From positions 19,241-83,240 of the forward strand of contig CAISOX010000053.1 of NCBI GenBank assembly GCA_903887235.1: a stretch of 64,000 bases of DNA, read 5' to 3'. Below are positions 8,154 through 25,247 of the stretch, one piece after another (the first letter of the stretch is position 1; every line of letters starts with the position of its first letter). The DNA is from an uncultured Alphaproteobacteria bacterium (lineage in GTDB: Bacteria > Pseudomonadota > Alphaproteobacteria > Rickettsiales > Midichloriaceae). The notes under the pieces were generated by a model. That model did not search any database and was not told the origin of the DNA. It was given only the letters and a program-made list of their open reading frames with translations. The position numbers were made by a program, and so were the translations under genes.

Positions 8154-9872
8154 ATGAAAAATAGCAATGAAATTTCTAATAACCCATTAAGAGATGCTTT
8201 GCTCTCGTGCAAGGTAATGGTAAAATTTGTGCTGTTATTTGGGTGCTTAATCAACCTACTTATGCTTTCAACACCACTTTTTTCAATGCAGGTGTTAGAT
8301 AGAGTATTGGGTAGTCAAAATACTGATACACTTTTAATGTTGACGCTAGTAATCATTTTAGCTTTAGCGCTACTTGGATTAATTCAAGCAGCAAGGGCTT
8401 TTGCAATGAATAAAATGGGGAGCTGGTTAGAAGATAAGCTATCTGAAGTAGTATTTTCAAATTCAATTAAGCTTGCATTAGAATCTAAGGCGATGGCAAA
8501 TAGTCAGCAACTAAGAGATTTACAAACAGTAAAGACATTTTTAACTAGCCCTGGATTGATTTCTATCATGGATATGCCATGGGCAATAATATTTATTATA
8601 GTTTTATTTATTTTGCATACGTCAATAGGCTTTTTAGCGCTGATCTCAGGAGTAGTGTTGATAGTATTTGGTATTATTGCAGATAGATCTACTAAACCAC
8701 TTATTGAAATGAATAACGGCAATTTCATTAAAAGTATGAGGCAAGTGGATCAATCCACAAGAAATGCTGAAGTTATCGAAGTTATGGGTATGAAAAATAA
8801 TATTATATCGTCTTGGCAAAAAATGAACCAAGAGGTTCAGCAAACCCAAAATCTTGTTACAAAAAGGCAAGCTATATTTATGGAAATTACCAAGTTTTTT
8901 AGATTAGTTATTCAAATTTCAGTAACTGCACTTGGTGCATACTTAGTGATTCAAGGGCAAATTACTTCTGGGACAATTATTGCTAGTTCATCTCTTGTTG
9001 GTAGAGCATTGGCTCCATTTGAAGCTGCCATAACTTCATGGAAGGGCTTTATTACATGTCGTCAATCATACGAAAGACTTGAAAAATCATTTAACAGATA
9101 CAGTAGTGATAGTGATAGAATGTCTTTACCGGAACCTGAGGGAGAAATTGAAGTTGAAAATGTTTATCACGCACCACAAGGAGTAGCAAAGCATATTTTG
9201 AAAGGCATAAATTTCTCATTAAATAAAGGAGAAGTCTTGGCTATAATTGGTCCTAGTGCTTCAGGCAAAACAACTCTTGCAAAATTGTTAGTAGGAATTG
9301 CTAACCCAAGTATTGGTACAATAAGAATAGATAAAGCAAGCTTAAAAGATTGGAAAAAAGAAGAATTGGGGCCACATATAGGTTATCTACCGCAAGATGT
9401 TGAATTATTTTCTGGAACAGTTAAAGAAAACATCGCTAGAATGCATTCTGATCCGCATTACGAAGATGTAGTCATTGCAGCGCAACTTGCAGGAGTTCAT
9501 GATATGATTCTGCAATTACCTCAAGGGTATGATACTAATGTGGGTTTAGATGGTTCAATGCTTTCGGGTGGACAAAAACAAAGGATAGGATTGGCTAGAA
9601 CTTTTTATGGCACCCCAAAATTCATTGTATTAGATGAGCCAAATGCCAGTTTGGATACGCAAGGCGAGGAAGCATTGATGACTGCCATTTCAGTTGCAAA
9701 GGAAAAAGAAATTACGACCATCATAATATCACATAAAACATCAATACTTAGCATTGTGGATAAAATATTGGTTATGAAAGATGGAATGGTTGCGTCTTTT
9801 GGGCCCAAAAAAGATGTGATGGCAAAATTAAAAGAAGCTCAATCAATCGGCAAATCAAGCATAGGGGCATAA
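8154..9872 (+). CDS. Type I secretion system ABC permease/ATPase (PrtD/AprD family)
   Basis: LFSMQVLDRVL, DMPW, GRALAPFE, GPSASGKTT, IGYLPQDVELFSGTVKENIAR, LSGGQKQRIGLAR and LDEPNASLD. Confidence 0.93.
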   Translation: MKNSNEISNNPLRDALLSCKVMVKFVLLFGCLINLLMLSTPLFSMQVLDRVLGSQNTDTLLMLTLVIILALALLGLIQAARAFAMNKMGSWLEDKLSEVVFSNSIKLALESKAMANSQQLRDLQTVKTFLTSPGLISIMDMPWAIIFIIVLFILHTSIGFLALISGVVLIVFGIIADRSTKPLIEMNNGNFIKSMRQVDQSTRNAEVIEVMGMKNNIISSWQKMNQEVQQTQNLVTKRQAIFMEITKFFRLVIQISVTALGAYLVIQGQITSGTIIASSSLVGRALAPFEAAITSWKGFITCRQSYERLEKSFNRYSSDSDRMSLPEPEGEIEVENVYHAPQGVAKHILKGINFSLNKGEVLAIIGPSASGKTTLAKLLVGIANPSIGTIRIDKASLKDWKKEELGPHIGYLPQDVELFSGTVKENIARMHSDPHYEDVVIAAQLAGVHDMILQLPQGYDTNVGLDGSMLSGGQKQRIGLARTFYGTPKFIVLDEPNASLDTQGEEALMTAISVAKEKEITTIIISHKTSILSIVDKILVMKDGMVASFGPKKDVMAKLKEAQSIGKSSIGA

Positions 9873-9891
9873 ATTTAAGGAGAATAATACC

Positions 9892-11565
9892 ATGATAGAA
9901 AATAAAAAAGAAGAGACAAAGGTTATAAAAGAAAAGGATATTGAAGTTATTTCTGAAAATAATGCAAATAGGAAATTTCAGATGGAAAATGATTTATCCA
10001 ATGGAGAAAAAAAAACGGTTTCAGTAAGCGAGGAGTTTGAAGAAAATTTAGTAGAAAAATATAAAAATTACAAAATTCTCGATATTAAGGCTTTTCAAGA
10101 ACTTTTAAAAGAAGCCAAGGATTTTTTATTTGGCATAACGCTAGAAAAGTCTAATTATGTAGAAAAAAATGAAAAAGAAATATCAAATCAAATTAAATAC
10201 CCAATAAAATTTGGACTTCTTGCAGTTGCCATAACTTTAGGATTTTTTGGTATATGGAGTGCGTTGGCTCCACTTGATAGTGCATCAATAGCGGAAGGCC
10301 ACGTTATTTTAAGTGATCACAGAAAGCAAATATTTCATTTAGAAGGTGGGATTATAGATCAAATCTTAGTGAAAGATGGAGATAAGGTAAAAAAAGGACA
10401 ATCTTTAATAATACTGAATGATGCTAGGGCTAAATCTGAATTGGAAAAAGTTTTATGGCAATTACGTTATGCTATCATAGTTGATGAAAAATTAAGGCAG
10501 AGCCTAAAGCTTATATCATACTACCAAGATAAGGATGCTTTAGGTGATACTGAGGAAAATAGCGATAACATTAAGAATTTACAAATTAAGTTCGATAGCA
10601 AGTATCTTGATACCTCAGATCAAAAAATTACGGAGTTGATACAAGCTCAGGCAAATGCGTTTAATTCATACCGCTTATTTATAGAAAATAGCATAAAGAC
10701 TAATGATACACAAATCGAACAAATTAAAGCTAGGATTGAGTCTATTGATGAAAGGATAAAATCTTATAGCGAAAATATTATAACTTATGCAAAAGAATAT
10801 GAAAGAAAGAAAAAATTATATGAGAGTCAGTTAGAGAACTTAAACAATTTATCTATAGCTAAAGTTGAATTGCAAAGATATAAGGGGCAGGTTCTAGAAG
10901 ATAAAGCAGCAAGATTATCTGAAGAACATAAAATTTCGGAGGTAATTGCAAGAAAGGCAAATTTTTTAGATGAGCAAAATGTCAAAATTGCAGAAGATTT
11001 CAAAAGGAATCACACAGACTTACTCACATTGGAAGCCGGATATCTACAAGCAAAAGATTCTCATGAAAGAACTAACATCACTGCTCCTAATGCTGGAGTG
11101 GTTACCGCGTTAAGTGTGCATACTGTTGGTTCAGCAATACGCCAAAACGATAAGCCACTTTTAGAAATTATTCCTCAGGATGACAATTTAGTGATTGAGG
11201 CATTTATCCCTTCAAATGAAATAGATAGTATTAATTTAGGTAGTACCGCGAAAATTCAATTAAATGCGTATAAGGCCAGATTAGTTCCAAGAATTGAGGG
11301 TAATGTTATTTATATTTCAGCTGATAAATTTGATAAAGAATCACCAGGAATGATGGGCCCAGGGCAACCTAAACTGGCCCCAATGGGTTATTATAAAGCT
11401 AAAATAGAGGTTACACCTGAAGAACTTGCAAAGGTTAATACAGATATTAAATTATATCCAGGTATGCCAGTGACAGTGTTTATTGTTAAAGGAACCAGGA
11501 GTTTCGCAGAGTACCTTTATTCTCCAATTAAAGATAGCTTCCATAAAGCGTTTAAAGAGCCGTAG
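9892..11565 (+). CDS. HlyD-family type I secretion membrane fusion protein (PrtE/AprE family)
   Basis: WSALAPLDSA, IFHLEGGII, ITAPNAGVV, LEIIPQDDNLVIEA, LYPGMPVTVFI and YLYSPI; adjacent to the ABC gene. Confidence 0.93.
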   Translation: MIENKKEETKVIKEKDIEVISENNANRKFQMENDLSNGEKKTVSVSEEFEENLVEKYKNYKILDIKAFQELLKEAKDFLFGITLEKSNYVEKNEKEISNQIKYPIKFGLLAVAITLGFFGIWSALAPLDSASIAEGHVILSDHRKQIFHLEGGIIDQILVKDGDKVKKGQSLIILNDARAKSELEKVLWQLRYAIIVDEKLRQSLKLISYYQDKDALGDTEENSDNIKNLQIKFDSKYLDTSDQKITELIQAQANAFNSYRLFIENSIKTNDTQIEQIKARIESIDERIKSYSENIITYAKEYERKKKLYESQLENLNNLSIAKVELQRYKGQVLEDKAARLSEEHKISEVIARKANFLDEQNVKIAEDFKRNHTDLLTLEAGYLQAKDSHERTNITAPNAGVVTALSVHTVGSAIRQNDKPLLEIIPQDDNLVIEAFIPSNEIDSINLGSTAKIQLNAYKARLVPRIEGNVIYISADKFDKESPGMMGPGQPKLAPMGYYKAKIEVTPEELAKVNTDIKLYPGMPVTVFIVKGTRSFAEYLYSPIKDSFHKAFKEP

Positions 11566-11593
11566 TATTATTGCATTAATATTTACTTTCTCC

Positions 11594-11750
11594 AAAAAAA
11601 AACGTCTCCTAAGAGGTCAGGCCGTAGAGTCTCATATACATCATGTGGAAGTATTCATATAAACCTCATGTCCATGCCAGGCTAAAAAATATTCTAGAGA
11701 ATTGGTATAACTTAGTGGCTTAATCTCAGCGCTTAGGCAACGATTTTACC
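11594..11750 (-). ncRNA. Candidate 6S RNA
   Basis: Intergenic ~140-150 nt segment. On the minus strand its ends pair (CGT..CCTAA..GAGATTAAGCC with GGCCTGACCTC-TTAGG..ACG) around a large central bubble containing TTATACCAA, with an apical stem and a 9-T tail. The architecture is 6S-like; no covariance search was run. Confidence 0.5.
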
Positions 11751-11762
11751 ATATGTCGCAAA

Positions 11763-12245
11763 TTAACTAAGTTCTATGTTTCTTTTTAAATCTTTTGCTA
11801 TTTTATCTAATATGCTATTAATAAAACCCAATTCCTCTGAATGGTTTAAGGACTTTGTAATCTGAAGATAATCATTGATTATGGTGGCCATTTCTAGATG
11901 ATTCATTATTGATATATCAGCTATACCAACTCTTAAGATAGCTAATACTAACTTAGGCAACCTTTCCAACTTCCATTTTTTATCTAAATTTGTCCTAATT
12001 AGTTCATCAATGCTTGAGGTATTATCAATAGTAGAGTTTAATAGCTCATAATAAAATTTTTCATCTAAGTTTTGATTTGAGTATTTTTCAACGTGATACT
12101 CAATATAATCTGACGAAATTTGCGCTATATCTTTTTTTTTATTTAAAATATCAATAGAATACAAAGTCTGTACCACCAGAATTCTAGCTGGATAAAGAGA
12201 TAGGTATTCAGAATTATCAGTTAAATTTTGAATATCTTTTATCAT
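11763..12245 (-). CDS. nusB: Transcription antitermination factor NusB
   Basis: ARILVVQTLY, IDELIRTNLDKKWKLERL, AILRVG and GFINSILDKIA; directly downstream of ribH (conserved order). Confidence 0.9.
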   Translation of the reverse strand: MIKDIQNLTDNSEYLSLYPARILVVQTLYSIDILNKKKDIAQISSDYIEYHVEKYSNQNLDEKFYYELLNSTIDNTSSIDELIRTNLDKKWKLERLPKLVLAILRVGIADISIMNHLEMATIINDYLQITKSLNHSEELGFINSILDKIAKDLKRNIELS

Positions 12246-12660
12246 TATATATCATAAATTGATCTTTAACCTTGATCATCTGAATGCATGCGTTTGCAGC
12301 ATTTTCACCATATTTTTTTGCTCTACTTAATGCTTGGTCAATATTATCAACCGTTAATACGCCAAATCCTAATGGGATGGAATAATAAATAGAGATATCT
12401 TGAATTGCTCTAGCGCATTCACGTGTAATCAGGTCATAGTGAGAAGTTTCACCTCTTATAACGCATCCTAGCGCTATCACACCATTATATTCAAACGTCT
12501 CTAATCCCATATTTATTGAACTTGCCAACTCAAAAGCTCCTGGAACAATAATTTGTTCATAATTCATGCTATTTTTTTCAAGTGTTGAAACAGCTGAATC
12601 TAACAGAAGTTTGGAAATGTCTTTATAATAATCTGATATCGAAATTAAAATTTTAGTCAT
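12217..12660 (-). CDS. ribH: 6,7-dimethyl-8-ribityllumazine synthase
   Basis: VPGAFEL, IALGCVIRGETSHYD and PLGFGVLT. Confidence 0.96.
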   Translation of the reverse strand: MTKILISISDYYKDISKLLLDSAVSTLEKNSMNYEQIIVPGAFELASSINMGLETFEYNGVIALGCVIRGETSHYDLITRECARAIQDISIYYSIPLGFGVLTVDNIDQALSRAKKYGENAANACIQMIKVKDQFMIYNDKRYSKFN

Positions 12661-12679
12661 TAGATAAAAACCTATTATT

Positions 12680-12764
12680 TGGTGCGGATGGAGGGACTTG
12701 AACCCACACGCCTTGCGGCACTAGATCCTAAGTCTAGCGCGTCTGCCAATTCCGCCACATCCGC
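12680..12764 (-). tRNA. tRNA-Leu(TAG)
   Basis: Reverse complement GCGGATGTGGCGGAATTGGCAGACGCGCTAGACTTAGGATCTAGTGCCGCAAGGCGTGTGGGTTCAAGTCCCTCCATCCGCACCA: anticodon TAG, long variable arm, CCA end. Confidence 0.97.
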
Positions 12765-12900
12765 AAAAGTATCCAAGTGCAATGTTATAATACTTTTATT
12801 AGTCAATAAAATAGATATAATGTCCTTGAACCAATTTGTTATAACAATTTAATACACTTAATAAATTTTAAATCAAGAAAAATTAATGAAATAAGCAACC

Positions 12901-13227
12901 ATGACATACGTAGTTACAGATAAATGTATAAAATGTAAATATACCGATTGTGTTGAAGTGTGCCCAGTAGATTGTTTTTACGAAGGAAAGAATATGATAG
13001 TAATAAATCCGGAAGAATGTATAGATTGTGGTGTTTGTGAAGCTGAATGTCCTGTAGGTGCTATAGAACCAGAATCAAGCAAATTGATTAAATGGCTTGA
13101 AATTAATAAAAAGTACTCTGATATTTGGCCCAATATTACGGAGAAAAAGGAAGCTCTAAAAGATGCTAAAAACTTTGAGGATGAAGAAGATAAGTACGAA
13201 AAATATTTTCATGAAAATACCAAATAG
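12901..13227 (+). CDS. fdxA: Ferredoxin FdxA (7Fe/8Fe type)
   Basis: [29 protein letters not shown]...[17 protein letters not shown]...WPNIT. Confidence 0.95.
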
Positions 13228-13234
13228 TATATTG
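13118..13234 (+). repeat. 117-bp direct repeat, copy 1 (last 110 nt of fdxA plus 7 nt)
   Basis: Identical to 15056-15172 except G13143 versus C15081. Confidence 0.95.
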
Positions 13235-13290
13235 CTATCTTTTTATGAACACTCCCCCCTTACCAGCACTTGATGCCAAGAAAGGCGATT

Positions 13291-15051
13291 ATGCATAAAC
13301 CACAAAAAGTATTATCCTTCCTATGGTCTGTCATTAAACCATATAAATGGTGGTATTTACTGATGATGCAAGCACCATTTGCTAATGCTATTTTCCCATT
13401 AATATACAATTATGCAATCAAATTATTGATAGATTTATTCGCTGCGAAATCGCAAATTACATTACACTCAGCTATTTATCCTGTACTCTTATTTATTGGT
13501 GTCAATGCTTGGCTGGAAATTTGCTGGAGGATTCACAATTTTGCTGCATGGAAATCTATGCCGTATATAATGCAAAATGTGATGAACAAAGTTTATAATT
13601 ATGTTTTAAATCACTCATATCGATTTTTTCAAAACAATCTAACTGGAACAATTACAAGTAAAGTAAAGGGCATTCATGATGGATGTCAACAAATACATGA
13701 TGCACTTGAATATCAAGTTAGCAAGCCTGTTTTAACGACTATCGTTACTGGTATTGGATTAGCTTGTGTCAATTGGAAAATATTCTTAGTAGTTATAATT
13801 TTTGCAATCATTCAAGGATCAGTTTCTATATTTTTTGGTAAAAAACTTAACTCCATAGAAACGGCAAAAGAGAATGCTTGGCATAAAATAGTTGGTTATA
13901 TGGCTGACAATATTTCAAATATTTTTACAATTTGTTCATACGCAAAAAAACAACATGAGGAGTATAAAGTAAATGCACAGTATGAAAAAAGTTACAAACC
14001 TCTTGCTTTAAAGTGGTGCAAGATAGATTTCATTATGGCTTGTTTACAAGCAACCGTATATTTAATATTTATGGCGTTATTGTTTATTTATATGATTCAT
14101 CTTAGAAATAACGGTGATATTAGCATAGGCGATATTGCGTTTATTATGGCTATGGCATATGTTTTTATTGATAATATGTGGACTGCCATAAATGTGATAA
14201 AAGATTTTTCGCAAACGATTGCACGATTTATATCTTCATTTTCAATTATGCAAATCCCTCAAGAGATTATTGATATACCTCATTCAATAAAATTAAAGGT
14301 GTCAGGAGGTGAAATTATTTTCAAGAATCTATGTTTCAATTACGAAAATAATAGTGCTATTTTTAATAATTTAAACTTACACGTTAAGGCTGGAGAAAAA
14401 GTTGGTATTGTTGGACATTCTGGAGCGGGAAAATCTACATTTATTTCACTTTTATTGAAAAACTTCAAAATAACATCTGGTGATATTATTATTGATAATC
14501 AAAGTATATGTGATGTTTCGTCTGATTCTCTTCGAGCTCAAATTTCATTAATCCCACAAGATATTATGCTTTTTCATCGTTCTATTGGTGAAAATATTGG
14601 CTATGCAAAAGAGAATGCAACTCAAAACGAAATAGAAATGTCTGCAAAAGCAGCTAATATTCATGTCTTTATTGAAAGTTTGCCTGAAAAATATGACACT
14701 TTAGTGGGTGAGCGAGGAGTGAAACTTAGTGGTGGTCAGCGTCAAAGAATAGCAATTGCTCGTGCAATTCTAAAAAATGCACCAATTTTGATTTTAGATG
14801 AGGCAACTTCGAGCCTTGATTCACAAACTGAATATGAAATTCAGAAATCTATAAATATTATGCTTGAACAAAATAGTGCAACAGTTATCGCAATAGCACA
14901 TCGCCTTTCAACAATCAAACATTTGGATAGAATCATTGTTATGGATGGCGGTCAGATTATTGAGGATGGCTCATTTCAGGATTTACTTACAAAAAATAAT
15001 GGAAAGTTTAAGATAATGTGGGATAGTCAAGTTAATGGAATGGTGATTTAA
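13291..15051 (+). CDS. ABC exporter, fused permease/ATPase (MsbA/multidrug-like)
   Basis: Multiple TM helices, GHSGAGKST, IPQDIMLFHRSIGENI, LSGGQRQRIAIARA, LDEATSSLD and IAHRLST. ATG 13291 is preferred over the track's TTG 13270. Confidence 0.93.
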   Translation: MHKPQKVLSFLWSVIKPYKWWYLLMMQAPFANAIFPLIYNYAIKLLIDLFAAKSQITLHSAIYPVLLFIGVNAWLEICWRIHNFAAWKSMPYIMQNVMNKVYNYVLNHSYRFFQNNLTGTITSKVKGIHDGCQQIHDALEYQVSKPVLTTIVTGIGLACVNWKIFLVVIIFAIIQGSVSIFFGKKLNSIETAKENAWHKIVGYMADNISNIFTICSYAKKQHEEYKVNAQYEKSYKPLALKWCKIDFIMACLQATVYLIFMALLFIYMIHLRNNGDISIGDIAFIMAMAYVFIDNMWTAINVIKDFSQTIARFISSFSIMQIPQEIIDIPHSIKLKVSGGEIIFKNLCFNYENNSAIFNNLNLHVKAGEKVGIVGHSGAGKSTFISLLLKNFKITSGDIIIDNQSICDVSSDSLRAQISLIPQDIMLFHRSIGENIGYAKENATQNEIEMSAKAANIHVFIESLPEKYDTLVGERGVKLSGGQRQRIAIARAILKNAPILILDEATSSLDSQTEYEIQKSINIMLEQNSATVIAIAHRLSTIKHLDRIIVMDGGQIIEDGSFQDLLTKNNGKFKIMWDSQVNGMVI

Positions 15052-15055
15052 TCCC

Positions 15056-15172
15056 CTGATATTTGGCCCAATATTACGGACAAAAAGGAAGCTCTAAAAG
15101 ATGCTAAAAACTTTGAGGATGAAGAAGATAAGTACGAAAAATATTTTCATGAAAATACCAAATAGTATATTG
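15056..15172 (+). repeat. 117-bp direct repeat, copy 2 (duplicated fdxA 3' end)
   Basis: CTGATATTTGGCCCAATATTACGGACAAAAAGG...GAAAATACCAAATAGTATATTG, matching 13118-13234. Confidence 0.95.
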
Positions 15173-15236
15173 ATTTTGTTGTAATTTGAATGCTATGTGT
15201 TAGGGTGACGAAATGTTTTTATAATTTGGATAGTAC

Positions 15237-17117
15237 ATGGTAAGAATTTTTATTAGTTGCTTTGTTTTAGTTTTTTTAAGCATAGATTCAAATGCGAGAT
15301 GGGCAACTTTACAGGATTCATCTATAAGAATAATTGAATCTAATGCCAATATCACAGTTAATAAAGACTATACTTATGAATCGACCATAGAATTTTTAGA
15401 CGAAATATTAAAAGAGCAAGGTAGACAAAATTACTCTAAATATACTTTTCAGTATGATATTAAGCGAGAAAAAATAGATATTTTGGAAGCTTATACAATT
15501 TTTGAAAACAAAAAATATATTGTAGGTGAAAGCGAAATAGAAAATAAACCACTTGCAAGTGAGGCTGATGCTCTTGCAGAATATGGGCAAATATCCATTG
15601 CATTTCCAAAAGTAGTAGTGGGTGCCAAAATATACCTTAAATACAGGAAAAAAGTGATAAATCCTTCTCCACCAGAATATTTCGATTATTTCCTTTCCTT
15701 CGGCGAAGGTGGTTATTCAGAAAATGATAATATAACAATAAATTCCGCAATTCCACTATATAGTTATGTTAATGATCCAAATAAGGTGCTTGAGGTTAAA
15801 AGCGATAACGAAAAAAATCAATTTACAAAAAAACTTATTATTAAACAAAAGAAACCATTTACTAGTGACTTAGTTGATGAGCCAAGTGAGGGAAGTATTA
15901 ACTCAAAATATCTTACCTGGGTTGCTATCACAAGTGAAGATACATGGCAAGGAATGCACAAAAAATTTATTGATAAGTATTTAAAAGCAATTAATCAGAA
16001 GTTACCTAGCGATTTTGAAAAAATTTATGAAAAGGCTAAGCAACAAAAAAGTGAGATTGAACAGATAAATTACATTACGCGTAGTTTAAATGACCAAATA
16101 CAATATTTAATGGACATGCGTACTATCTCTGGCAATGTTTTCCCCAGAGATTTAGAGGAGGTTGCTAAAACTCAATATGGTGATTGTAAGGATTTTTCAT
16201 TTGTAACGGGCGCAATACTTAAAAAACTTGGATATAACGTAGACATTACTATAGTTTACAGAGGTGAAATTTACCCAGAATTTAAATCTCCTATTCCAGA
16301 GTTGGCTTTTAATCATATGATGCTTAAGGTAAGTGGTAAAAGCGGCAATGTATATTGGTTGGATCCTACTAATTTTCAAAGTATGGCAAATGGTATATTT
16401 CCAGATGTTGCGGATAGGATGGCTTTAGTAATTTCTGAAAAAGAAGCTAAATATGAAAAAATACCTGAAATCGATCCGATTAAAGCTAATAATTCTATAA
16501 CTAAGGAATATTTGATTAATGAAGACGCTGTTAATGTTGTGTTTAATGCAAATTTGAGTGGGCAAAATTCTTGGCATTTCAGTGGTTTGGGGAAAATGTA
16601 TTCTAAAAGACGTTTAGAAGATACGTTTTTTATGCTTGCAAATGGTTATAAGATAGTTAGCCCAAAAGATAGAATAAGTTCAGAAATACCTAATTTAGAA
16701 TCAAGAATTGTTAAAGATGTAAAGTTTAAGGTTGAATATAAAACCGATGATTTATTATTTCACACAAATTTAGGAAAAGGATTAAAATTGAGATATCAAT
16801 TTTTGGAATTTGTTGCTGATACTATTGAGGATAATAAAATAGACTTTTATATAGGAACCCCCAGAGAGTATAGTATAAAAACCATTATAAAATCCAGATG
16901 CATAAAAAACACAAAAAGCCTTAATTTTGATATTGATACTCAATGGTTAAAATTAAACAGAACTGCAAAATGCATAAATGATGATACTATCGTAATCGAT
17001 AATGCGTTATTCAAAAAGTCCTTTATTAAAAATGAAGAAATTACAACAGATGAATTCAAAAAGTTAAAAAAGGCTATCAATGATAATTATATAGGTATGG
17101 CTGTTATTGTTGATTAA
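15237..17117 (+). CDS. Exported DUF3857/transglutaminase-like protein
   Basis: Signal-peptide-like N-terminus; GDCKDFS (Cys), FNHMML (His) and WLDPT (Asp) catalytic-triad motifs. Confidence 0.8.
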   Translation: MVRIFISCFVLVFLSIDSNARWATLQDSSIRIIESNANITVNKDYTYESTIEFLDEILKEQGRQNYSKYTFQYDIKREKIDILEAYTIFENKKYIVGESEIENKPLASEADALAEYGQISIAFPKVVVGAKIYLKYRKKVINPSPPEYFDYFLSFGEGGYSENDNITINSAIPLYSYVNDPNKVLEVKSDNEKNQFTKKLIIKQKKPFTSDLVDEPSEGSINSKYLTWVAITSEDTWQGMHKKFIDKYLKAINQKLPSDFEKIYEKAKQQKSEIEQINYITRSLNDQIQYLMDMRTISGNVFPRDLEEVAKTQYGDCKDFSFVTGAILKKLGYNVDITIVYRGEIYPEFKSPIPELAFNHMMLKVSGKSGNVYWLDPTNFQSMANGIFPDVADRMALVISEKEAKYEKIPEIDPIKANNSITKEYLINEDAVNVVFNANLSGQNSWHFSGLGKMYSKRRLEDTFFMLANGYKIVSPKDRISSEIPNLESRIVKDVKFKVEYKTDDLLFHTNLGKGLKLRYQFLEFVADTIEDNKIDFYIGTPREYSIKTIIKSRCIKNTKSLNFDIDTQWLKLNRTAKCINDDTIVIDNALFKKSFIKNEEITTDEFKKLKKAINDNYIGMAVIVD

Positions 17118-17121
17118 GATA

Positions 17122-17226
17122 ATAGCATAATTCAGCTAAGTATTGACATCGTCATTCTTCGCTTATGTAGGTTTTACTACACTTCGCTCATCACTCCTTG
17201 TCACTACCTATCTGACCTAAAGCTAT
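17122..17226. repeat. Dispersed ~105-bp palindromic element, copy 1
   Basis: About 92% identical to 45963-46066 (7 mismatches, 1 gap, 54-bp identical core). ATAGC...GCTAT termini and an internal TGTAG/CTACA hairpin. Confidence 0.9.
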
Positions 17227-17265
17227 AGCACTTTTACCCTTGTTTTTTGGGGACAGATTTCAATC

Positions 17266-17319
17266 TTAACGTAAATTTAACGTAACCTTAACATAATTGT
17301 AACATTTCATGTGTATAAT
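17266..17319 (+). promoter_or_regulatory. Tandem CtrA-like boxes plus a -10 element
   Basis: TTAAC at 17266, 17277 and 17288 and GTAAC at 17299 (11-bp period, i.e. overlapping TTAA-N7-TTAAC), then TATAAT at 17314-17319. Confidence 0.65.
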
Positions 17320-17386
17320 ACAAAAATAAGCCCAAAGTTAATAATGACCTTGGGTGAATTTAACAATATAAGTGAAGGTTTACATT

Positions 17387-18190
17387 ATGAGACATTATTA
17401 TAGCATTGCTAATTTTTTAGCAGGAATAGGAATAGAAATATATGATAATTATTTTTCTAGTTACGGCGAAACTTACCAACAGTTGCTTGGTGAGATGCTC
17501 GGATGGTCACAAGGTCATACCGGGGAAGTACAAGCAATATTTAATAACAATGTCCTGCCAGAACTTTTTGTAAATCAATGGGGAAATAATTTAACAAGAA
17601 CAATAGTTAAGCAGTTTAAGCATCAGTATATTGAGTATGAAAATGGTAATATTAAAGGGTGGAATGGTGATGCCGCAGCCATAATGCAGCACACATCTCT
17701 TTGGAATTTCATGAGTAAGTGGAATAATGTCGCAACAATCGTTGCAGGTGTAAGTGATGTAATATATCAATTAATAGATGATGGAATATTAGATGAAACA
17801 ACAGTTACAGAACTCACAAAAAAAGTAGGGCTAACAATAGGTGCAATAAACTTGGTGGCGATTATGGGGATGACATTGCTAATAGTCCCAGAAGCCATGG
17901 GTACAGTGCTTGTAACTTCAGCCTTTTCAACTGTAATAATTATCCTGGAAAGCCTAAACCTTTTGGAAGATGTAAAAATCAATCTAATGTATCAATTAGG
18001 AGTGGGTTTTTCTAAGTTATATAACTTGGATATTGAGATAACTGAATTATATAAAATTATTGATGATAGCAAGGTTGAGCAAGATACCATCTCAGTTATT
18101 ATCGAAGAAGTAGAAGTTAATAACTTGCAGGGTATAGTGACAGAGCTTAACACATCTTCATGGAGTGAGGATTTTGCAATTACCACATAA
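17387..18190 (+). CDS. Hypothetical protein with a central hydrophobic hairpin
   Basis: Long ORF with ATG 17387 preceded by GAAGG (the track starts at GTG 17372). About 45-aa hydrophobic stretch VGLTIGAINLVAIMGMTLLIVPEAMGTVLVTSAFSTVIIILESLNLL. Confidence 0.75.
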   Translation: MRHYYSIANFLAGIGIEIYDNYFSSYGETYQQLLGEMLGWSQGHTGEVQAIFNNNVLPELFVNQWGNNLTRTIVKQFKHQYIEYENGNIKGWNGDAAAIMQHTSLWNFMSKWNNVATIVAGVSDVIYQLIDDGILDETTVTELTKKVGLTIGAINLVAIMGMTLLIVPEAMGTVLVTSAFSTVIIILESLNLLEDVKINLMYQLGVGFSKLYNLDIEITELYKIIDDSKVEQDTISVIIEEVEVNNLQGIVTELNTSSWSEDFAITT

Positions 18191-18369
18191 TTTCGGATAA
18201 AGAATTAAACTCCCCTTTTTTACAATAAAAAGCTTAAATAGCTAGCATTAGAATGAGCTGGTGTTTTAGAGTGGGGGGCTGGCTATTTGCAATTTTAAAG
18301 TTTCTGTAAATTTGCTAGCCCTTATCCAAAACTTGGGTTAATTATTAAAAATATAAAATCAATATAATA

Positions 18370-18398
18370 TTGTACTTGTAGTTAATTCGATTCATAAT
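18370..18398 (+). promoter_or_regulatory. Sigma70-type promoter for tRNA-Thr(CGT)
   Basis: TTGTAC-N17-CATAAT, ending 16 nt before the tRNA. Confidence 0.55.
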
Positions 18399-18414
18399 TA
18401 CATTGAATTTTTAT

Positions 18415-18489
18415 GCCGAAGTAGCACAGAGGTAGTGCAACTGATTCGTAATCAGTAGGTCGGGAGTTCAATTCTCCCCTTCGGCACCA
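18415..18489 (+). tRNA. tRNA-Thr(CGT)
   Basis: GCCGAAGTAGCACAGAGGTAGTGCAACTGATTCGTAATCAGTAGGTCGGGAGTTCAATTCTCCCCTTCGGCACCA. Confidence 0.96.
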
Positions 18490-18686
18490 GATTTTAATGA
18501 TTTTTCTGGCTAATTGTATAAAGCTTAATGCTTTTTCCCTCTTATATCTGGAGTGAATATTAAATATTTTTGAAAATCCTGATTCATATTATATAGCGTT
18601 TTTTAAAATTTCCTTCAAAATCTAAAATCTATATATGCTATATATGAAAAAAAACACCAAGATTTACTTGTAAGACACAATAAAAA

Positions 18687-18761
18687 TGGTGCCGCTAGTG
18701 GGAATCGAATCCACGACCTCTTCATTACCAATGAAGTGCACTACCACTGTGCTATAGCGGC
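18687..18761 (-). tRNA. tRNA-Thr(GGT)
   Basis: Reverse complement GCCGCTATAGCACAGTGGTAGTGCACTTCATTGGTAATGAAGAGGTCGTGGATTCGATTCCCACTAGCGGCACCA. Confidence 0.96.
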
Positions 18762-18766
18762 TAAAA

Positions 18767-18843
18767 TGGTAGCGAAGGAGGGACTCGAACCCCCGACACG
18801 CGGATTATGATTCCGCTGCTCTAACCAGCTGAGCTACTCCGCC
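18767..18843 (-). tRNA. tRNA-Met(CAT), probably elongator
   Basis: Reverse complement GGCGGAGTAGCTCAGCTGGTTAGAGCAGCGGAATCATAATCCGCGTGTCGGGGGTTCGAGTCCCTCCTTCGCTACCA. It lacks the three consecutive G-C anticodon-stem pairs and the C1 mismatch of initiator tRNA. Confidence 0.93.
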
Positions 18844-18921
18844 AAGAATAAAATAAAAAATTTATAGCATATTTAAATTGATTAGTTAATTGTTTGTTGC
18901 AAATTTGGTGAAATTAATTAT

Positions 18922-18951
18922 TTGACTAAGGTAAAATTTTGTTGTTAGAAT
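18922..18951 (+). promoter_or_regulatory. Near-consensus sigma70 promoter for the 18982 ORF
   Basis: TTGACT-N18-TAGAAT, with an AAGGTG RBS before the ATG. Confidence 0.5.
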
Positions 18952-18981
18952 TGATAATAATAATATTTAAAAGGTGAACAA

Positions 18982-19608
18982 ATGGCAGTGCAAGAAATTT
19001 TAGGTGAAGCTTTTGAAAAGGTTGCTAATATTCAAAATGCGGTAGATGATATAAAGGATGCGATGGGGAAAATTGAAAAAAATAATCCTATGATAGGTGA
19101 TTTGGAGGAATCAGTTGGTTCCATTACTAAAATTATTGAATCTGCTCAAGAAAAGAATATTTCTGGTGTAATTGAAAATGGAGTTGCGCTGGCTAAAGAA
19201 TTAAGTGAGTTGCCTGGTCATGTTAAGGAGTTTATTGATACCAAGGGCACAAGTTTACTTAATGATGGTAAGGATATAAAAGACGAAGTTGTTGATCTTG
19301 TAAAGCAAATAGGTAGTCAGTTTAATGAAATTATAGGGGATTTAAAAGAAGGAGGTTTGCAAGGCTTTCTTAAAGCATTTAATGATCTTACGAGTGCGAT
19401 TACTGAAGATATACAAGCCGGAAAAGGTATAACTGATAAGGTCGAGCACATGGTTCAGACATTAGAAGAAAAAGGTGATATTGCTAAGGTAAGTGAAGGG
19501 CTTAAAGGTGTTGGAGATGTAAAAGATGCAGGTGGTAAAGATGGTCAGCAAGCTCCTACCACACCAGGCCAAGATGTTGGTGGGCAGGATCAAGGAATGG
19601 CAATGTAA
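18982..19608 (+). CDS. Hypothetical all-helical amphipathic protein with a Gly/Gln-rich tail
   Basis: 208-aa ORF with its own promoter, RBS and terminator. No signal peptide or TM segment; no family recognised. Confidence 0.85.
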   Translation: MAVQEILGEAFEKVANIQNAVDDIKDAMGKIEKNNPMIGDLEESVGSITKIIESAQEKNISGVIENGVALAKELSELPGHVKEFIDTKGTSLLNDGKDIKDEVVDLVKQIGSQFNEIIGDLKEGGLQGFLKAFNDLTSAITEDIQAGKGITDKVEHMVQTLEEKGDIAKVSEGLKGVGDVKDAGGKDGQQAPTTPGQDVGGQDQGMAM

Positions 19609-21877: not shown

Positions 21878-23524
21878 ATGGAATTTTTAAAAAGATTAAG
21901 TACAAATAAGTTAGTAATATTGGCTTTACTTATGGCTGCAATTTTAATAGGCGCTTTGTTCTTTGTAATGAGCTCTAAGCCTATTTATAGTAGTTTATAT
22001 AGCGAACTAAGTGATAATGATAGGTTAAATGTAACTTTAAAGTTGCAATCCATGGGTGTGGATTATAAGGTGGACATGAAAAATTCCCAAATACTGGTTC
22101 CGGCACATAAAGTGTTAGAATTAAGGATGTATTTTTCACAAAGTGGGCTTATTAGCTCTGGTAACATTGTTGGATATGAAATTTTTGACAAAGAAAATGG
22201 GCTTGGTAGTTCACAGTTTCTAAATAATATCAATTCTTTAAGGGCGCTTGAAGGAGAATTGTCCAGAACTATTAATAGTTTGTCTCAAATTGAAAATTCT
22301 AGAATTCATCTAGTTTTGCCAAAAAAAGAGCTTTTTTCTAAGTCAAATGTGACTCCTTCTGCTTCGATTATGATAAAATTAAAGCCTGGGGCAGCTATTT
22401 CAAAAAATGAAGTTAAAGCAATTACCAATTTGGTGTCAAAAGCTGTGCCTGATTTGCTTTCAGAAAATATCACTATTATGGATAGTATGGGGCATCCGTT
22501 GAAGATGCCAGGATCTGAAAACGAAGGTTTATTGGGTGGTGATAATTCTGAATTCAAACTTATAGAATATCAAAATTTGCTAGAGAAGCAGTTAAGATTA
22601 AAAATTGAACATCTTTTGGAGAGCCGAGTTGGTATAGGCAAGGTAAAGGTTGACGTTGCGGCAAAAATTAATAACAATAGAGAGGTAATGGTTTCTGAAT
22701 TTTTTGACCCAGATGGACAGGTGATTCGTTCCAAAAAAACTAGTGAAGAGAGAGAAAAAGATGGAGATGAGAATGAAAACATTTCAGTTGCTAATAATAT
22801 TCCAAATTCTAATCAGCAAATTTCTGGCTCTAGTCAAGTACCTAAGACAAAAAGTAAGCTAGATGATATCACAAATTACGAAATATCCAAAACAGTGACG
22901 AATACAATAATAGAGGAGGGGGGTGTTGAGAAACTTTCAGTTGGGATTTTGGTTGATGGATACTATGAGATAGATGAAAGTACTAAGAAACAGGTATATC
23001 ACAAAAGAAGTGATGAAGAGCTTGCGCAACTGAAGATATTAGTAAAATCTGCAATTGGCTTTGATGAAAAAAGGGGCGATAAATTAGAGATAATTAATCT
23101 TGAATTTACAAATGATAAGCTTCAGGATTCCGATCAAAAAGTAAATTGGTTAGATGAAAATCTAAAAAACCTTATTCAGATGGGTATGATAGGGGTAATT
23201 GTTATTTTGATAATATTACTTATCTTTAAACCAATATTATCAAGAATTTTAGAGGCAAATAAAAATGGAGCTGGGGAGATAAATAAATTTTTTGATTTTA
23301 AAAAATTAGGATTTAATAATAAATTTTCTGATGAGGGTAATATGGAAAATAAAAATTTTGATTCTTCAGATGACTCGAGTAGCAATGCTATAATCAACAA
23401 ACTACATATTGGAAACAAGCACAAACATATGTTAGATAGTGTAAATGAGTTAGTTGAAAAATATCCTGAAGAGGCAATAGATATATTGAAAAAATGGATA
23501 AATAATGATCAGAAAGTGCAGTAA
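21878..23524 (+). CDS. fliF: Flagellar MS-ring protein FliF
   Basis: GYEIFDK...GSSQF...RALEGELSRTI, RIHLVLPKKELF, PSASIMIKL, GFDEKRGD; two TM segments; C-terminal ELVEKYPEEAIDILKKW. Confidence 0.95.
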   Translation: MEFLKRLSTNKLVILALLMAAILIGALFFVMSSKPIYSSLYSELSDNDRLNVTLKLQSMGVDYKVDMKNSQILVPAHKVLELRMYFSQSGLISSGNIVGYEIFDKENGLGSSQFLNNINSLRALEGELSRTINSLSQIENSRIHLVLPKKELFSKSNVTPSASIMIKLKPGAAISKNEVKAITNLVSKAVPDLLSENITIMDSMGHPLKMPGSENEGLLGGDNSEFKLIEYQNLLEKQLRLKIEHLLESRVGIGKVKVDVAAKINNNREVMVSEFFDPDGQVIRSKKTSEEREKDGDENENISVANNIPNSNQQISGSSQVPKTKSKLDDITNYEISKTVTNTIIEEGGVEKLSVGILVDGYYEIDESTKKQVYHKRSDEELAQLKILVKSAIGFDEKRGDKLEIINLEFTNDKLQDSDQKVNWLDENLKNLIQMGMIGVIVILIILLIFKPILSRILEANKNGAGEINKFFDFKKLGFNNKFSDEGNMENKNFDSSDDSSSNAIINKLHIGNKHKHMLDSVNELVEKYPEEAIDILKKWINNDQKVQ

Positions 23525-23548
23525 TTATCAACCTATATATAGTATGTT

Positions 23549-24547
23549 ATGGAGCTAAAAAATCTAGAAAATGAAAATTTAGAAAGTGCAGCTGTTTTGC
23601 TTTTAGCATTGAATGAGGAAAATGCAGGGAAAATTTTAAAGCATTTATCGGAAAGTGATGTTTATAAAATATCTAATCAGATTGCTAATTTAAGAGATAT
23701 GGAGGCTGATAGAGTATTAGATACACTGTCGTATTTTGCTGATAGAATAAGTAATGCGAGTTTATTAGGCGGGCATTTACCTAGGTTAAGAAGATTTTTA
23801 CATAAAGTTTTTGACCAAGAAAAAGTGGATCTTATAATGCAAAATGTTGATGGTCCTTTGAATAAAACTTGGGAAATCATAGCTGGTATGAGTGATAAAG
23901 TGCTAGTTGAATATTTAAAAAACGAATATCCTCAAACAGTGGCGTTTATTTTATCTAAATTACCATCTCAAAAAGCATCAAAAATTATCAGTAAATTCTC
24001 GGAAAATTTTTCTTTTGAGGTAATTAAGAGAATTTTAAATATGGATGAGGTTAATAAGAGTGTACTTCTAAATTTAGAAAATACCTTAAGAAGAGATTTA
24101 GTTGAAAAATCCGACATTTCAAAAGAATTGGATAATAATCAAATCGTTGCAGATATATTTAACAATCTTGACAAAAAAGATGAAAGTCTGTTCTTTGAGC
24201 TATTAGAAAAATATGATGCTAATAAAGCGCAATTAGTTAGAAAAAATATGCTAATTTTTGATGATATTAAGAGAGTTGACTCAAGGGGAATGCAGATGCT
24301 AATAAGATACTCAGATAAATCAGTTTTACCAAAAGCGTTAAAATTTGCTGATGATAACATTAAGAATTGCTTTTTTAATAACATGTCTGCTAGAGCAGCA
24401 AAAATTCTAATTGAAGAAATTGATAATTCTAACAACACCAAGCTTGAAGAATCTGAGCTAGCTCAGAAAAATATATTGTTAATTTTGAGGGAGTTGATGA
24501 ATAAAGGACAAGTAACTTTAAGAGACATTATAAAAAATTCAGATTAA
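23549..24547 (+). CDS. fliG: Flagellar motor switch protein FliG
   Basis: AAVLLLAL, NEYPQTVAFILS (EHPQ-like), MLIFDDI and NMSARAAKILIEEI. Confidence 0.93.
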   Translation: MELKNLENENLESAAVLLLALNEENAGKILKHLSESDVYKISNQIANLRDMEADRVLDTLSYFADRISNASLLGGHLPRLRRFLHKVFDQEKVDLIMQNVDGPLNKTWEIIAGMSDKVLVEYLKNEYPQTVAFILSKLPSQKASKIISKFSENFSFEVIKRILNMDEVNKSVLLNLENTLRRDLVEKSDISKELDNNQIVADIFNNLDKKDESLFFELLEKYDANKAQLVRKNMLIFDDIKRVDSRGMQMLIRYSDKSVLPKALKFADDNIKNCFFNNMSARAAKILIEEIDNSNNTKLEESELAQKNILLILRELMNKGQVTLRDIIKNSD

Positions 24548-24548
24548 C

Positions 24549-25247
24549 ATGCAAAATTATGTTATAAAAAAATTTCCTTTTAATAGTTTTTCAGATAATA
24601 AGGGATATGACAATAACTTGGCTTTAAAGAAAAACATCAAAGATGAATACACTGGAAAAAATTTAGAAGTGGCTAGCAACATATTGGCCAAAAAAGATAT
24701 TATAGTTGAACAGAATGAATACACAAAAGAGAAAGTGGAAGCATTAAAATTTGAGTCCTTCGAAAATGGGTGGGCAGAATGTGAAAAAGCCCAACAAAAG
24801 TTAATAGATCGGACGAAAGAAGATAGTAGTATCAGCCTAATGATGAAAATTGAATCGAATCTATTCAATATTTATGAAACAATTGAAAGCAAATATGATA
24901 ATTTGTCAAAGGATTGTGTAGAGTTAAGCTATGTAATTGCAAATAAATTAGTAGGAAAGTTAAGTGAAAAATTTCCAAATGAGGTTATATTAGATTTTTT
25001 GAGTAAAAGCCTCCCTTTACTTACTCATGCAAATGATATTAGGGTGGGTGTTAACCCAAAAAATTTACCGCATATAAAAAGCTATATTGACGATGTAAAT
25101 CAAAATTCAGCAATAAAAATTAAGCTAGTAGAAGACGAATCAATAGATATTGGTGACTGTAAAGTAGATTGGGGCAATGGATTGATAAAAAAAGATACAG
25201 AAAAAGTCAAAAAGGATTTAGAGTCCATTTTTAAAAATAATTTATAA
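24549..25247 (+). CDS. fliH: Flagellar assembly protein FliH
   Basis: Lies between fliG and fliN; FENGWAE segment, IRVGVNPKNL and EDESIDIGDCKVDWGNG. Confidence 0.75.
   Translation: MQNYVIKKFPFNSFSDNKGYDNNLALKKNIKDEYTGKNLEVASNILAKKDIIVEQNEYTKEKVEALKFESFENGWAECEKAQQKLIDRTKEDSSISLMMKIESNLFNIYETIESKYDNLSKDCVELSYVIANKLVGKLSEKFPNEVILDFLSKSLPLLTHANDIRVGVNPKNLPHIKSYIDDVNQNSAIKIKLVEDESIDIGDCKVDWGNGLIKKDTEKVKKDLESIFKNNL

Follow-up and report, generated by a model that had tools for sequence, protein, structure and literature searches.

Within the 64,000-nt window analysed here, from an uncultured freshwater member of the Midichloriaceae (Rickettsiales), a gene for an ABC half-transporter lies between the ferredoxin gene fdxA and a DUF3857 gene, and it is bracketed by two copies of the fdxA 3' end (Table 1). 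The two copies match at 116 of 117 positions, the sole mismatch being G at 13143 and C at 15081, and 0 matches are expected from 100 dinucleotide-preserving shuffles. Between them, positions 13235-15055 (1,821 nt) hold a 56-nt leader, one ABC_membrane plus ABC_tran gene and 4 nt; the ABC gene is the only open reading frame of at least 50 amino acids, leaving 60 nt besides. ORF and Pfam analysis of the segment between the repeats, whose neighbors are fdxA and the DUF3857 gene, shows neither an integrase nor an excisionase or transposase gene, nor any other gene of a mobile element. No terminal inverted repeats occur at 13235/15055, no attC-type imperfect palindrome is present (the gap from the ABC stop codon to copy B is just 4 nt), and an Rfam scan of 11000-19500 returned tRNAs only.

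Table 1. Features of the fdxA / ABC / DUF3857 locus (window coordinates)
Feature	Position	Strand	Basis or remark
nusB	11763-12245	-	Pfam NusB; left part of conserved block
ribH	12217-12660	-	Pfam DMRL_synthase; left part of conserved block
tRNA-Leu (TAG)	12680-12764	-	ARAGORN; Rfam tRNA
fdxA, intact, 108-aa 7Fe ferredoxin	12901-13227	+	NCBIfam FdxA_Protbact; Pfam Fer4 and DUF3470
Microhomology site within fdxA, CTCTGATATTT	13116-13126	+	Inserted segment rejoins fdxA sequence here
Repeat copy A	13118-13234	+	fdxA codon 73 (from second base) to 108, stop codon (13225-13227) and 7 nt
Strain- and copy-variable site cluster	13138-13168	+	Sites 13138, 13140, 13143, 13164, 13167, 13168
56-nt leader, arrived with ABC gene	13235-13290	+	Left junction 13234/13235
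Inserted ABCB-type half-transporter gene (TMD+NBD, 586 aa)	13291-15051	+	Pfam, NCBIfam, orthologues, dN/dS
TCCC, remnant of native ABC 3' flank	15052-15055	+	TCCT in L100, TCTCT in L016
Repeat copy B, non-coding fdxA-tail copy	15056-15172	+	Sequence comparison
Native fdxA-DUF3857 intergenic region	15173-15236	+	Seamless continuation of copy B
DUF3857 (transglutaminase-like) gene	15237-17117	+	Pfam; ancestral immediate downstream neighbor of fdxA

The first-pass annotation had described a 117-bp duplication of the fdxA tail with one mismatch, enclosing essentially the exporter with no integrase, transposase or inverted repeats, and both statements are borne out by the repeat, ORF and Pfam scans. 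It had also proposed that the duplication leaves the gene intact, and fdxA is indeed full length: its product scores 155.8 bits against the proteobacterial FdxA model (NCBIfam FdxA_Protbact, NF045490; cut-off 135) and carries the C-terminal DUF3470 domain over residues 64-103 (Pfam). Its remark that the single mismatch exchanges Glu for Asp reads the codons correctly but is irrelevant, since copy B lies beyond the ABC stop codon and has a 1-nt deletion in one strain type.

To define the ABC gene we took the ATG common to all orthologues, which gives 586 amino acids. The protein has the N-terminal six-helix ABC_membrane domain (PF00664, residues 30-292, E value 6.6e-24) and the C-terminal ABC_tran ATPase (PF00005, residues 358-507, E value 1.1e-33) that characterize an ABCB-type exporter. 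It falls short of the MsbA equivalogs, with 352.5 bits against a cut-off of 602 for TIGR02203 and 271 against 867 for NF008381, and it is best described from its domains as an MsbA-like half-transporter under every equivalog cut-off. Orthologues of 93, 90, 84, 82, 79 and 70% identity occur in six mutually different contexts, none of which adjoins fdxA or is flanked by repeats. The genes found beside them (Sua5/YciO, DegT, Bac_transf, methyltransferase, NUDIX, AAA_14, beta-lactamase, APH, OPT) have no homologue in the 64-kb window; in the 93% relative, the flanking genes are DegT, Bac_transf and Sua5/YciO. Homology between the window and the orthologues extends only from ~11 nt before the ATG to ~13 nt past the stop codon. 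Of the leader, no more than the final ~11-30 nt align to orthologue upstream regions, and searches against the upstream regions in L016, L015, L014, L013 and L005 gave short, low-scoring matches only.

More distant orthologues (55-62% identity) are found throughout Rickettsia, Tisiphia and Trichorickettsia. The GC content of the ABC gene (0.29-0.35) is like that of its flanks, and its dN/dS was about 0.09-0.18 before the gene moved to its present position and has stayed so since, which indicates purifying selection. Its dS to strain L004 is 0.09, similar to that of neighboring genes, and it is a single-copy gene, present once on a 1.2-Mb contig and once at 512x depth in run X9. No close homologue exists on known plasmids, where the best match is 37% identical. 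The ABC gene is a resident, vertically inherited, conserved gene with host composition, and not foreign cargo. Horizontal gain was considered on account of the identity gap to the nearest outgroup (ABC 93% versus DUF3857 81%) and was rejected, because DUF3857 evolves ~1.7-fold faster; identity to Tisiphia is 58% for ABC and 40% for DUF3857.

No terminator-like site lies between fdxA and the ABC gene, and metatranscriptome contigs bridge 13033-13478 (fdxA-leader-ABC), though these are assembled contigs that may contain DNA; transcription apparently continues from fdxA into the ABC gene. A weak sigma-70-like match occurs inside the repeat at 13206-13233 and again at 15144-15171. We considered whether copy B might preserve a promoter for DUF3857 and set this aside, as the promoter scan found 19 sites compared with 18.1 in shuffled sequence and the repeat site is not conserved in L008. 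A read-through fusion of ABC to an in-frame fdxA tail was rejected in view of the 1-nt copy-B deletion in X10-type strains.

The arrangement recurs in 37 or more contigs from independent assemblies; by list, 18, 19 and a further 2 contigs of the clade are filled, where the first two lists may share assemblies. It is found in contigs assembled at k=141, longer than the repeat, and in the 1.2-Mb contig at 211x, which to judge from its name (ctg..._211x_c) is probably a circular assembly of long reads. SNPs specific to one copy connect it with the flank it belongs to in k=31 unitig graphs, where depth is ~2x over the part that the copies share. A collapsed or chimeric join at the repeat, which the first-pass annotation had named as the result that would undo its reading, has nothing in its favor beyond the general risk of metagenome assembly, and the agreement across independent assemblers and samples, the k=141 and 1.2-Mb contigs and the proper connection of copy-specific SNPs to their flanks leave it virtually no credibility.

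No empty or amplified allele was found in ~40 contigs from many samples, a search in which excision rarer than ~1-5% would be undetectable in k=31 contigs. The copy-number variation that had been suggested as a check is not seen in read depth: the cassette/flank ratio in k=31 contigs is about 1.0, with 511.8x for the cassette and 514/512.9 for the flanks in X9, and 23.1 and 25.2/24.2 in X1. A metagenome search with a first pattern, across the right junction of copy B, gave no match; a second pattern matched two JGI contigs, both filled. An FdxA scan of GTDB genomes returned mainly Pelagibacterales and Hyphomicrobiales, did not retrieve the window's species, and held only one relevant entry (L019, the same contig as L010).

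Relatives do have an empty site, as the first-pass annotation had proposed to look for. In three sister lineages (L008/L009, L012 and L010/L011), nusB-ribH-tRNA-Leu-fdxA is followed directly by the DUF3857 gene, with a fdxA-DUF3857 gap of 21-25 nt in all five contigs, and the order nusB-ribH-tRNA-Leu-fdxA-DUF3857 is the same in L008, L009, L010 and L012. The DUF3857 proteins of these lineages are 80% (L008/L009), 78% (L012) and 69% (L010/L011) identical to that of the window. As judged by this comparison, the exporter gene is a true insertion into the ancestral fdxA-DUF3857 junction. Both junctions are common to the window, L001-L004, L017, L018, L099, L100 and runs X9, X10, X14 and X18, strains that differ by 1-5% elsewhere. 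Since the junctions are the same in all insertion-bearing strains, whose nucleotide divergence is 3-5%, they derive from one event in a common ancestor; the insertion has a single origin and is fixed in all sampled strains.

The right junction retains a trace of how the segment may have arrived. In L100 and X10 it reads TAATCCTCTAATATTT followed by GGCCC, which is the native flank of L016, TAATCTCTCTAATATTT, minus one T, and this TAATCCTCTAATATTT junction overlaps the fdxA sequence CTCTGATATTT. Comparing the native ABC 3' flank CTCTAATATTT (from L016, a proxy only for the donor flank, and from the L100 junction) with fdxA CTCTGATATTT, we find that 10 of 11 positions match, a microhomology evident in the alignment. 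Such a match at the right junction points to illegitimate recombination or template switching rather than to integrase/att chemistry. In addition, the inserted stretch has orthologues at other loci and is accompanied by a 117-nt target duplication, in line with the templated insertions and return-step duplications listed for FoSTeS/MMBIR (PMC2621351, Table 2).

The locus is a fixed rearrangement scar in one freshwater Midichloriaceae species, and neither a mobile element nor a genetic switch. We consider it fairly probable that the scar goes back to a single ancient non-reciprocal rearrangement in which the ABC gene was copied into the fdxA-DUF3857 junction by a microhomology-mediated template switch. 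In the ancestor of the clade, the resident single-copy ABCB gene, together with ~56 nt of its upstream and 4-15 nt of its downstream sequence, would have been copied into this junction. The most likely process is illegitimate recombination guided by microhomology, in its replicative, template-switching form (FoSTeS/MMBIR). The nascent strand would have departed from the fdxA template 7 nt past the stop codon (13234), copied the ABC locus as far as CTCTAATATTT, just beyond the ABC stop, and re-annealed at fdxA CTCTGATATTT (13116-13126), ~110 nt behind the departure point. This return step would have re-copied the fdxA tail, so that fdxA stayed intact and DUF3857 retained its native upstream sequence. 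A template switch that returns behind its point of departure yields a duplication, and in the same process sequence from elsewhere follows the microhomology at a junction (PMC2621351). The one-step replicative route and the loss of the ABC gene from its old site are both inferred; the gene may have moved by cut-and-paste or by copying followed by loss. A microhomology of 10/11 exceeds the 2-5 bp typical of MMBIR and would also fit RecA-independent recombination at short homologies, or a point where a circle closed. So would a fragment captured at a staggered break, which is inseparable by sequence from a one-step replicative event.

The two copies have since exchanged sequence. At sites 13140, 13167 and 13168, copy A of L004 has T, A and G, as in the outgroups, while G, T and A are found in all B copies and in the A copies of the window and X9; X10 and L100 have C, A and G at 13164-13168 in both copies. 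Site 13143 adjoins a run of A and is a hotspot. All differences between the copies in L004 fall within the left 51 nt, and the right 66 nt of the repeat are identical in L004, the window and X9. These allele mosaics argue for gene conversion in both directions, B-to-A and A-to-B. An A at 13168 gives K90 in FdxA where the ancestral residue is E90, and B-to-A conversion apparently wrote copy-B changes, E90K among them, into the FdxA of the window lineage. The clustering of variable sites within 31 nt could also reflect a patch imported from another strain, and inter-strain recombination is evident. Copy B has meanwhile accumulated a 1-nt deletion (X10-type) and 4-9 substitutions in some strains. 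The earlier proposal that the copies recombine is supported by the mosaics, which indicate conversion; no excised or amplified product appears in the ~40 contigs. The sole role of the 117-nt copies is to provide homology for recombination, visible as gene conversion. A crossover between them would delete a conserved single-copy gene, a product not observed in this set.

Other histories could lead to the same arrangement. A circle carrying the fdxA tail, leader and ABC gene might have recombined with the chromosomal tail in one RecA-dependent crossover, as in the Campbell-type integration of a circle put forward in the first-pass annotation. The product has exactly the expected form of homologous segment, cargo and homologous segment, copy B runs seamlessly into the native intergenic region, the microhomology CTCT[A/G]ATATTT could be the point of circle closure, and the confinement of L004 differences to the left 51 nt is what a crossover of diverged tails might leave. 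Such a circle, however, could arise only where fdxA and ABC already lay side by side, in an earlier state or in a donor. Across the lineages sampled, fdxA is missing from all six other ABC contexts, and ABC from all three fdxA contexts found beyond the clade. A diverged donor tail should also differ on both sides of the crossover, yet in L004, the window and X9 the rightmost 66 nt show no difference, and the route takes more steps than a one-step templated insertion. We regard it as unlikely, and for a mobile circle the vertically inherited, single-copy cargo and the lack of a recombinase offer no support. Integrative elements often target gene 3' ends, restoring them with a direct repeat, and the first-pass annotation had alternatively proposed the remnant of a larger element with fdxA as attB. 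The element would be an island, ICE or prophage inserted at the fdxA 3' end, with the repeats as attL and attR and with its integrase and other genes since deleted. The one observation in this direction is that the L014 orthologue adjoins Tn3-family transposase and resolvase genes. Against it, there are no element genes and just 60 nt besides one gene between the repeats, the cargo has host composition and is a core gene passed on by vertical descent, a 117-nt att core would be a long one, the best plasmid homologue reaches 37%, and an att core would not explain why the left end of the repeat sits in a 10/11-nt microhomology with the native flank of the cargo. A literature search found no fdxA att site, and we give this origin hardly any weight.

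The suggested on/off or dosage switch, in which RecA crossover between the copies would reversibly excise or amplify the exporter in subpopulations, draws on copies that are 116/117 identical, directly oriented and demonstrably exchanging sequence, and on the fact that deletion would restore an intact fdxA beside DUF3857. Every contig of the clade is filled, however, with no empty or tandem allele among ~40; cassette depth equals flank depth at 512x; no orthologue elsewhere is repeat-flanked; a lost circle would have no replication origin or means of re-integration; and copy B is decaying in some strains. The ABC gene has only one copy, is conserved across the Rickettsiales and evolves under purifying selection, so its loss would probably be deleterious. 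An active switch is thus very unlikely. The same holds for the possibility that the ABC gene itself moves repeatedly within the Midichloriaceae as a single-gene cassette, by machinery encoded elsewhere in the genome. Seven contexts in seven lineages, with homology ending within ~15 nt of the ORF, would suit it, but outside the five-gene block from nusB to DUF3857 both flanks differ in every lineage; the genomes are generally scrambled, so the changing neighbors of the ABC gene are not exceptional. The other contexts lack a conserved end motif, attC-like structure or flanking repeats, and intergenic DNA would anyway not align at such divergences. There is a slim chance, only slightly better than these, that the 1.94-kb unit of fdxA tail, leader and ABC gene is a recombinase-free, homology-driven cassette that in rare cells still leaves as a circle and re-integrates or amplifies by way of the 117-bp repeat. 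If so, it would be a reversible exporter dosage switch in an endosymbiont-like bacterium, and the differing location of the gene in each related lineage would reflect repeated moves of this kind.

The favored template-switch origin can be set beside known systems. It shares with FoSTeS/MMBIR a segment derived from elsewhere, a target duplication produced by return behind the departure point, and, at the right junction, microhomology (PMC2621351), but differs in the length of that microhomology (10/11 nt compared with 2-5 bp), in that the right junction alone could be read and in that the process is inferred from its product, in an uncultured bacterium of endosymbiont-like character. Campbell insertion-duplication by single crossover, as with suicide vectors, likewise places cargo between homologous segments with the target gene intact; at this locus there is no evident source of a fdxA-tail circle, and the left edge of the repeat is a microhomology to the cargo flank. 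Integrative elements at gene 3' ends also leave direct repeats around the insert and a reconstituted target 3' end, whereas here there are no integrase or element genes, the cargo is a resident gene of housekeeping type fixed in all strains, and the repeat is 117 nt with a boundary set by microhomology. In contrast to transposons and IS elements, there is no transposase or TIR, and the duplication is 117 nt rather than a short 2-14 bp. Integron cassettes and IS26 translocatable units resemble the ~1.9-kb single-gene unit in being circularizable in principle, but this unit has no attC, attI, IntI or IS, and its orthologues lack conserved cassette ends. In gene/pseudogene conversion, a form of concerted evolution of short duplicates reported for chloroplast rpl23 (PMC6620283), a non-functional partial copy donates mutations to the gene and the reverse also occurs; here the tract is only 117 nt, with 1.9 kb separating the copies, and allele mosaics in wild strains supply the evidence.

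The locus opens no new class of system. It does carry a warning for annotation, in that a tail-cargo-tail structure at a gene 3' end is by itself no evidence of an integrative element or switch. For the Rickettsiales, it offers a natural example, with proxies for both the empty site and the donor flank, of a conserved gene relocating in a reduced, heavily rearranged genome, where one junction retains the microhomology that was probably used in the relocation. The 117-nt dead copy of the fdxA tail would in turn act as a mutation reservoir, from which conversion appears to write changes such as E90K into an essential-type ferredoxin gene.

The two copies of the fdxA tail, copy A and copy B, differ at a single position (13143 G vs 15081 C), and no such match arose in any of 100 shuffles, bearing out the duplication described in the first-pass annotation. 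Copy A is the fdxA 3' end, starting within codon 73 and ending 7 nt past the stop codon, and copy B continues without a break into the intergenic region ahead of the DUF3857 gene. The 1,821-nt cassette between them holds, as that annotation also stated, essentially one ABC exporter gene, which is MsbA-like and scores under every NCBIfam equivalog cut-off. We found no recombinase, transposase or terminal inverted repeats at the cassette; GC content is flat over the region, and an Rfam scan of the region returned tRNAs only. Copy B is in frame with the ABC gene (15049-15172), such that reading through the TAA would append SPDIWPNITDKK...ENTK. This shared frame is probably a coincidence, because strains of the type found in sequencing run X10 break it by a 1-nt deletion at 15081.

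Features of the window and of three loci carrying the ABC orthologue elsewhere (L013, L014, L015)
Feature	Position	Size	Remarks
PrtD-type type I secretion ABC protein and HlyD-family gene	8154-11565		697 bits, TIGR01842; directly upstream of nusB
fdxA	12901-13227	108 aa	FdxA_Protbact, 155.8 bits vs cut-off 135
Copy A	13118-13234	117 nt	
Leader	13235-13290	56 nt	start of cassette
ABCB-type half-transporter gene	13291-15051	586 aa	ABC_membrane + ABC_tran
TCCC		4 nt	between ABC gene and copy B
Copy B	15056-15172	117 nt	
DUF3857 gene	15237-17117		reached from copy B via 64-nt intergenic region
Dispersed intergenic repeat, first copy	17122-17216	95 nt	5 nt past DUF3857 stop
Dispersed intergenic repeat, second copy	45963-46057	95 nt	overlaps stop of ORF 45340-45966
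fliF, fliG, fliH	21878-25247		flagellar
Degenerate coding repeats	41722-42407	~138 nt each	within 542-aa ORF 40827-42455 (minus strand)
Tn3-family transposase genes (DDE_Tnp_Tn3, DUF4158), two resolvase genes	L014:230-7194		
ABC orthologue	L014:7421-9181		
Class A/C-type beta-lactamase-fold gene, then APH (aminoglycoside phosphotransferase-like) gene	L015:1975-4105		after ABC orthologue
Tandem array of CGGGAATGACAAGTGTCTCT	L013:9777-9902	20-nt unit	at least 5 perfect copies; 16 nt past ABC stop, reaching contig end

The same fdxA-ABC-DUF3857 order was present in 18 contigs encoding an identical ABC protein, in 19 contigs encoding an identical FdxA (which may overlap the 18), in two JGI contigs and in a 1.2-Mb contig at 211x. 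In unitig graphs built at k=31, depth was about twofold over the part of the repeat that the copies share, and copy-specific SNPs tied each copy to its own flank. Together with the independent contigs, this rules out the assembly artefact that the first-pass annotation had allowed for. Pond and lake metagenomes contain near-identical sequence. The source is a low-GC member of the Rickettsiales with flagellar genes, consistent with Midichloriaceae, and its depth of 80-514x in runs labelled with three coded organisms (among X9 and X14-X20) suggests that it is host-associated, in or on a freshwater eukaryote. Two other repeats were seen in the window: the dispersed intergenic pair is 95% identical and could be a small repetitive element, terminator or sRNA, and the degenerate coding repeats number 3-5 copies at 63-81% identity.

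Three sister lineages keep the nusB-ribH-(tRNA-Leu)-fdxA block, where fdxA is followed after 21-25 nt by the DUF3857 gene, without an ABC gene; their DUF3857 identities are 80% (L008/L009), 78% (L012) and 69% (L010/L011; the relative with this identity is labelled Candidatus Midichloriaceae). These empty sites show that the exporter gene is an insertion into the fdxA-DUF3857 junction, as had been proposed. Both junctions are common to all insertion-bearing strains even though the surrounding genes differ by 1-5%, and the insertion is therefore older than the diversification of these strains. The PrtD-type/HlyD pair upstream of nusB is confined to this clade, its place being taken by AFG1 and a hypothetical gene in L008 and by trigger factor, ClpP and ClpX in L010, and it marks another lineage-specific rearrangement boundary.

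In relatives, the ABC orthologue sits at other places, each different: downstream of DegT-Bac_transf-Sua5 (L016, 93% identity), ahead of a beta-lactamase and an APH-like gene (L015, 90%), adjoining Tn3-family transposase and resolvase genes (L014, 84%), downstream of OPT and a hypothetical gene (L013, 82%), between a methyltransferase and an AAA_14 gene (L005, 79%) and between an SDR and an HD_4 gene (L006/L007, 70%). Nucleotide homology to the window extends only about 11 nt ahead of the gene and 13 nt beyond it, and none of these loci has flanking repeats. Beyond the five-gene block both flanks change in every lineage and the genomes are generally scrambled, so the varied ABC context needs no special mobility mechanism. 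Mobile elements are active in these Midichloriaceae, given the Tn3-family genes of L014. Orthologues at 55-62% identity occur throughout Rickettsia, Tisiphia and Trichorickettsia; the 1.2-Mb contig and run X9 (512x) each hold only one orthogroup member. The ABC gene is under purifying selection (dN/dS 0.09-0.18 vs relatives, both those of the clade and those beyond it), its dS to the insertion-bearing locus L004 (0.09) is comparable in size to that of HlyD (0.07) and fdxA (0.13), and its best match in a known-plasmid search was just 37% identical. This is a gene native to the lineage that has been relocated, not imported.

The right junction reads ...GATTTAA TCCC CTGATATTTGGCCC in the window and ...GATTTAA TCCT CTAATATTTGGCCC in the X10/L100 strain type, while the 93% orthologue has the native 3' flank ...GATTTAA TCTCT CTAATATTTTATT and fdxA at 13113-13131 reads GTA CTCTGATATTT GGCCC. 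The L100 junction thus follows the native ABC flank, with one T missing, through ATATTT and then passes into fdxA sequence, and donor flank and target share CTCT[A/G]ATATTT (10/11 match). On this reading, the G at 15058 in the window is a later conversion from copy A. Aligned in this way, the sequences indicate that illegitimate recombination at microhomology, not an att-site recombinase, made the right junction. On the left, the leader aligned only weakly with other upstream regions, and a search of the 64-kb window for genes neighboring the orthologues did not find the clade's former ABC locus.

A replicative template switch would be the simplest single event yielding tail-insert-tail with such a junction: the nascent strand would depart fdxA at 13234, copy the ABC locus and return to fdxA about 110 nt behind its departure point. 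In the MMBIR scheme, return behind the departure point produces a duplication, with microhomology joints and then sequence from elsewhere (PMC2621351). Campbell-like homologous integration of a circle already carrying the fdxA tail would give the identical product and is a less likely alternative: it requires a prior fdxA-ABC adjacency, of which there is none in evidence, and if the circle donor had diverged, the copies should differ to either side of the crossover, contrary to what is seen.

The on/off or dosage switch suggested by the first-pass annotation found no support: every contig was filled, with no deletion or amplification in the k=31 run contigs, where products below a few per cent are invisible, and cassette depth equalled flank depth (511.8 vs 514 and 512.9 in X9; 23.1 vs 25.2 and 24.2 in X1). 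What the copies do is exchange sequence.

Alleles at six variable sites of the repeat (copy A coordinates)
Sequence	13138	13140	13143	13164	13167	13168
Outgroups L008/L012	A	T	G	T	A	G
L004, X14, X18 copy A	A	T	A	C	A	G
L004, X14, X18 copy B	G	G	G	T	T	A
Window copy A	A	G	G	T	T	A
Window copy B	A	G	C	T	T	A
X9, both copies	A	G	G	T	T	A
L099/L100 copy A	A	G	A	C	A	G
X10/L100 copy B	A	G	1-nt deletion (X10) / A (L100)	C	A	G

The derived G, T and A at 13140, 13167 and 13168 thus belong to copy B, from which they passed into the functional fdxA in the window/X9 lineage, turning FdxA E90 into K90; in X10/L100, copy B received the A-type patch. In other respects copy B decays as an untranslated remnant would (four changes in L018; the 1-nt deletion plus four private changes in X10), and 13143, bordering an A-run, looks like a slippage hotspot. 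Alternatively, some mosaics may have been imported between strains, not from the other copy. Identity between the window and L018 varies from 94.6 to 100% along the locus (8154-17117), at 94.6-94.9% in the type I secretion genes and DUF3857 and 98-100% in the segment that begins with the tRNA-fdxA spacer and ends with the ABC gene, a pattern indicating that strains of the population undergo homologous recombination with one another.

The architecture resembles attL-island-attR or the insertion-duplication left by a suicide vector. Tests for the features that define integrative elements, transposons and integron cassettes came out negative, and integration of a mobile element with fdxA as attB is unsupported given the lack of a recombinase, the resident gene and the microhomology at the right junction. 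Microhomology-mediated templated insertion with target duplication fits as the product class, and gene/pseudogene conversion of the ordinary kind fits the later history of the copies. The structure is a rearrangement scar that is well resolved but ordinary. Since a scan of the interval from fdxA to the ABC gene found no terminator-like site, and metatranscriptome contigs (assembled, and possibly including DNA) span 13033-13478 and 12992-13300, the relocated ABC gene is probably read through from fdxA.
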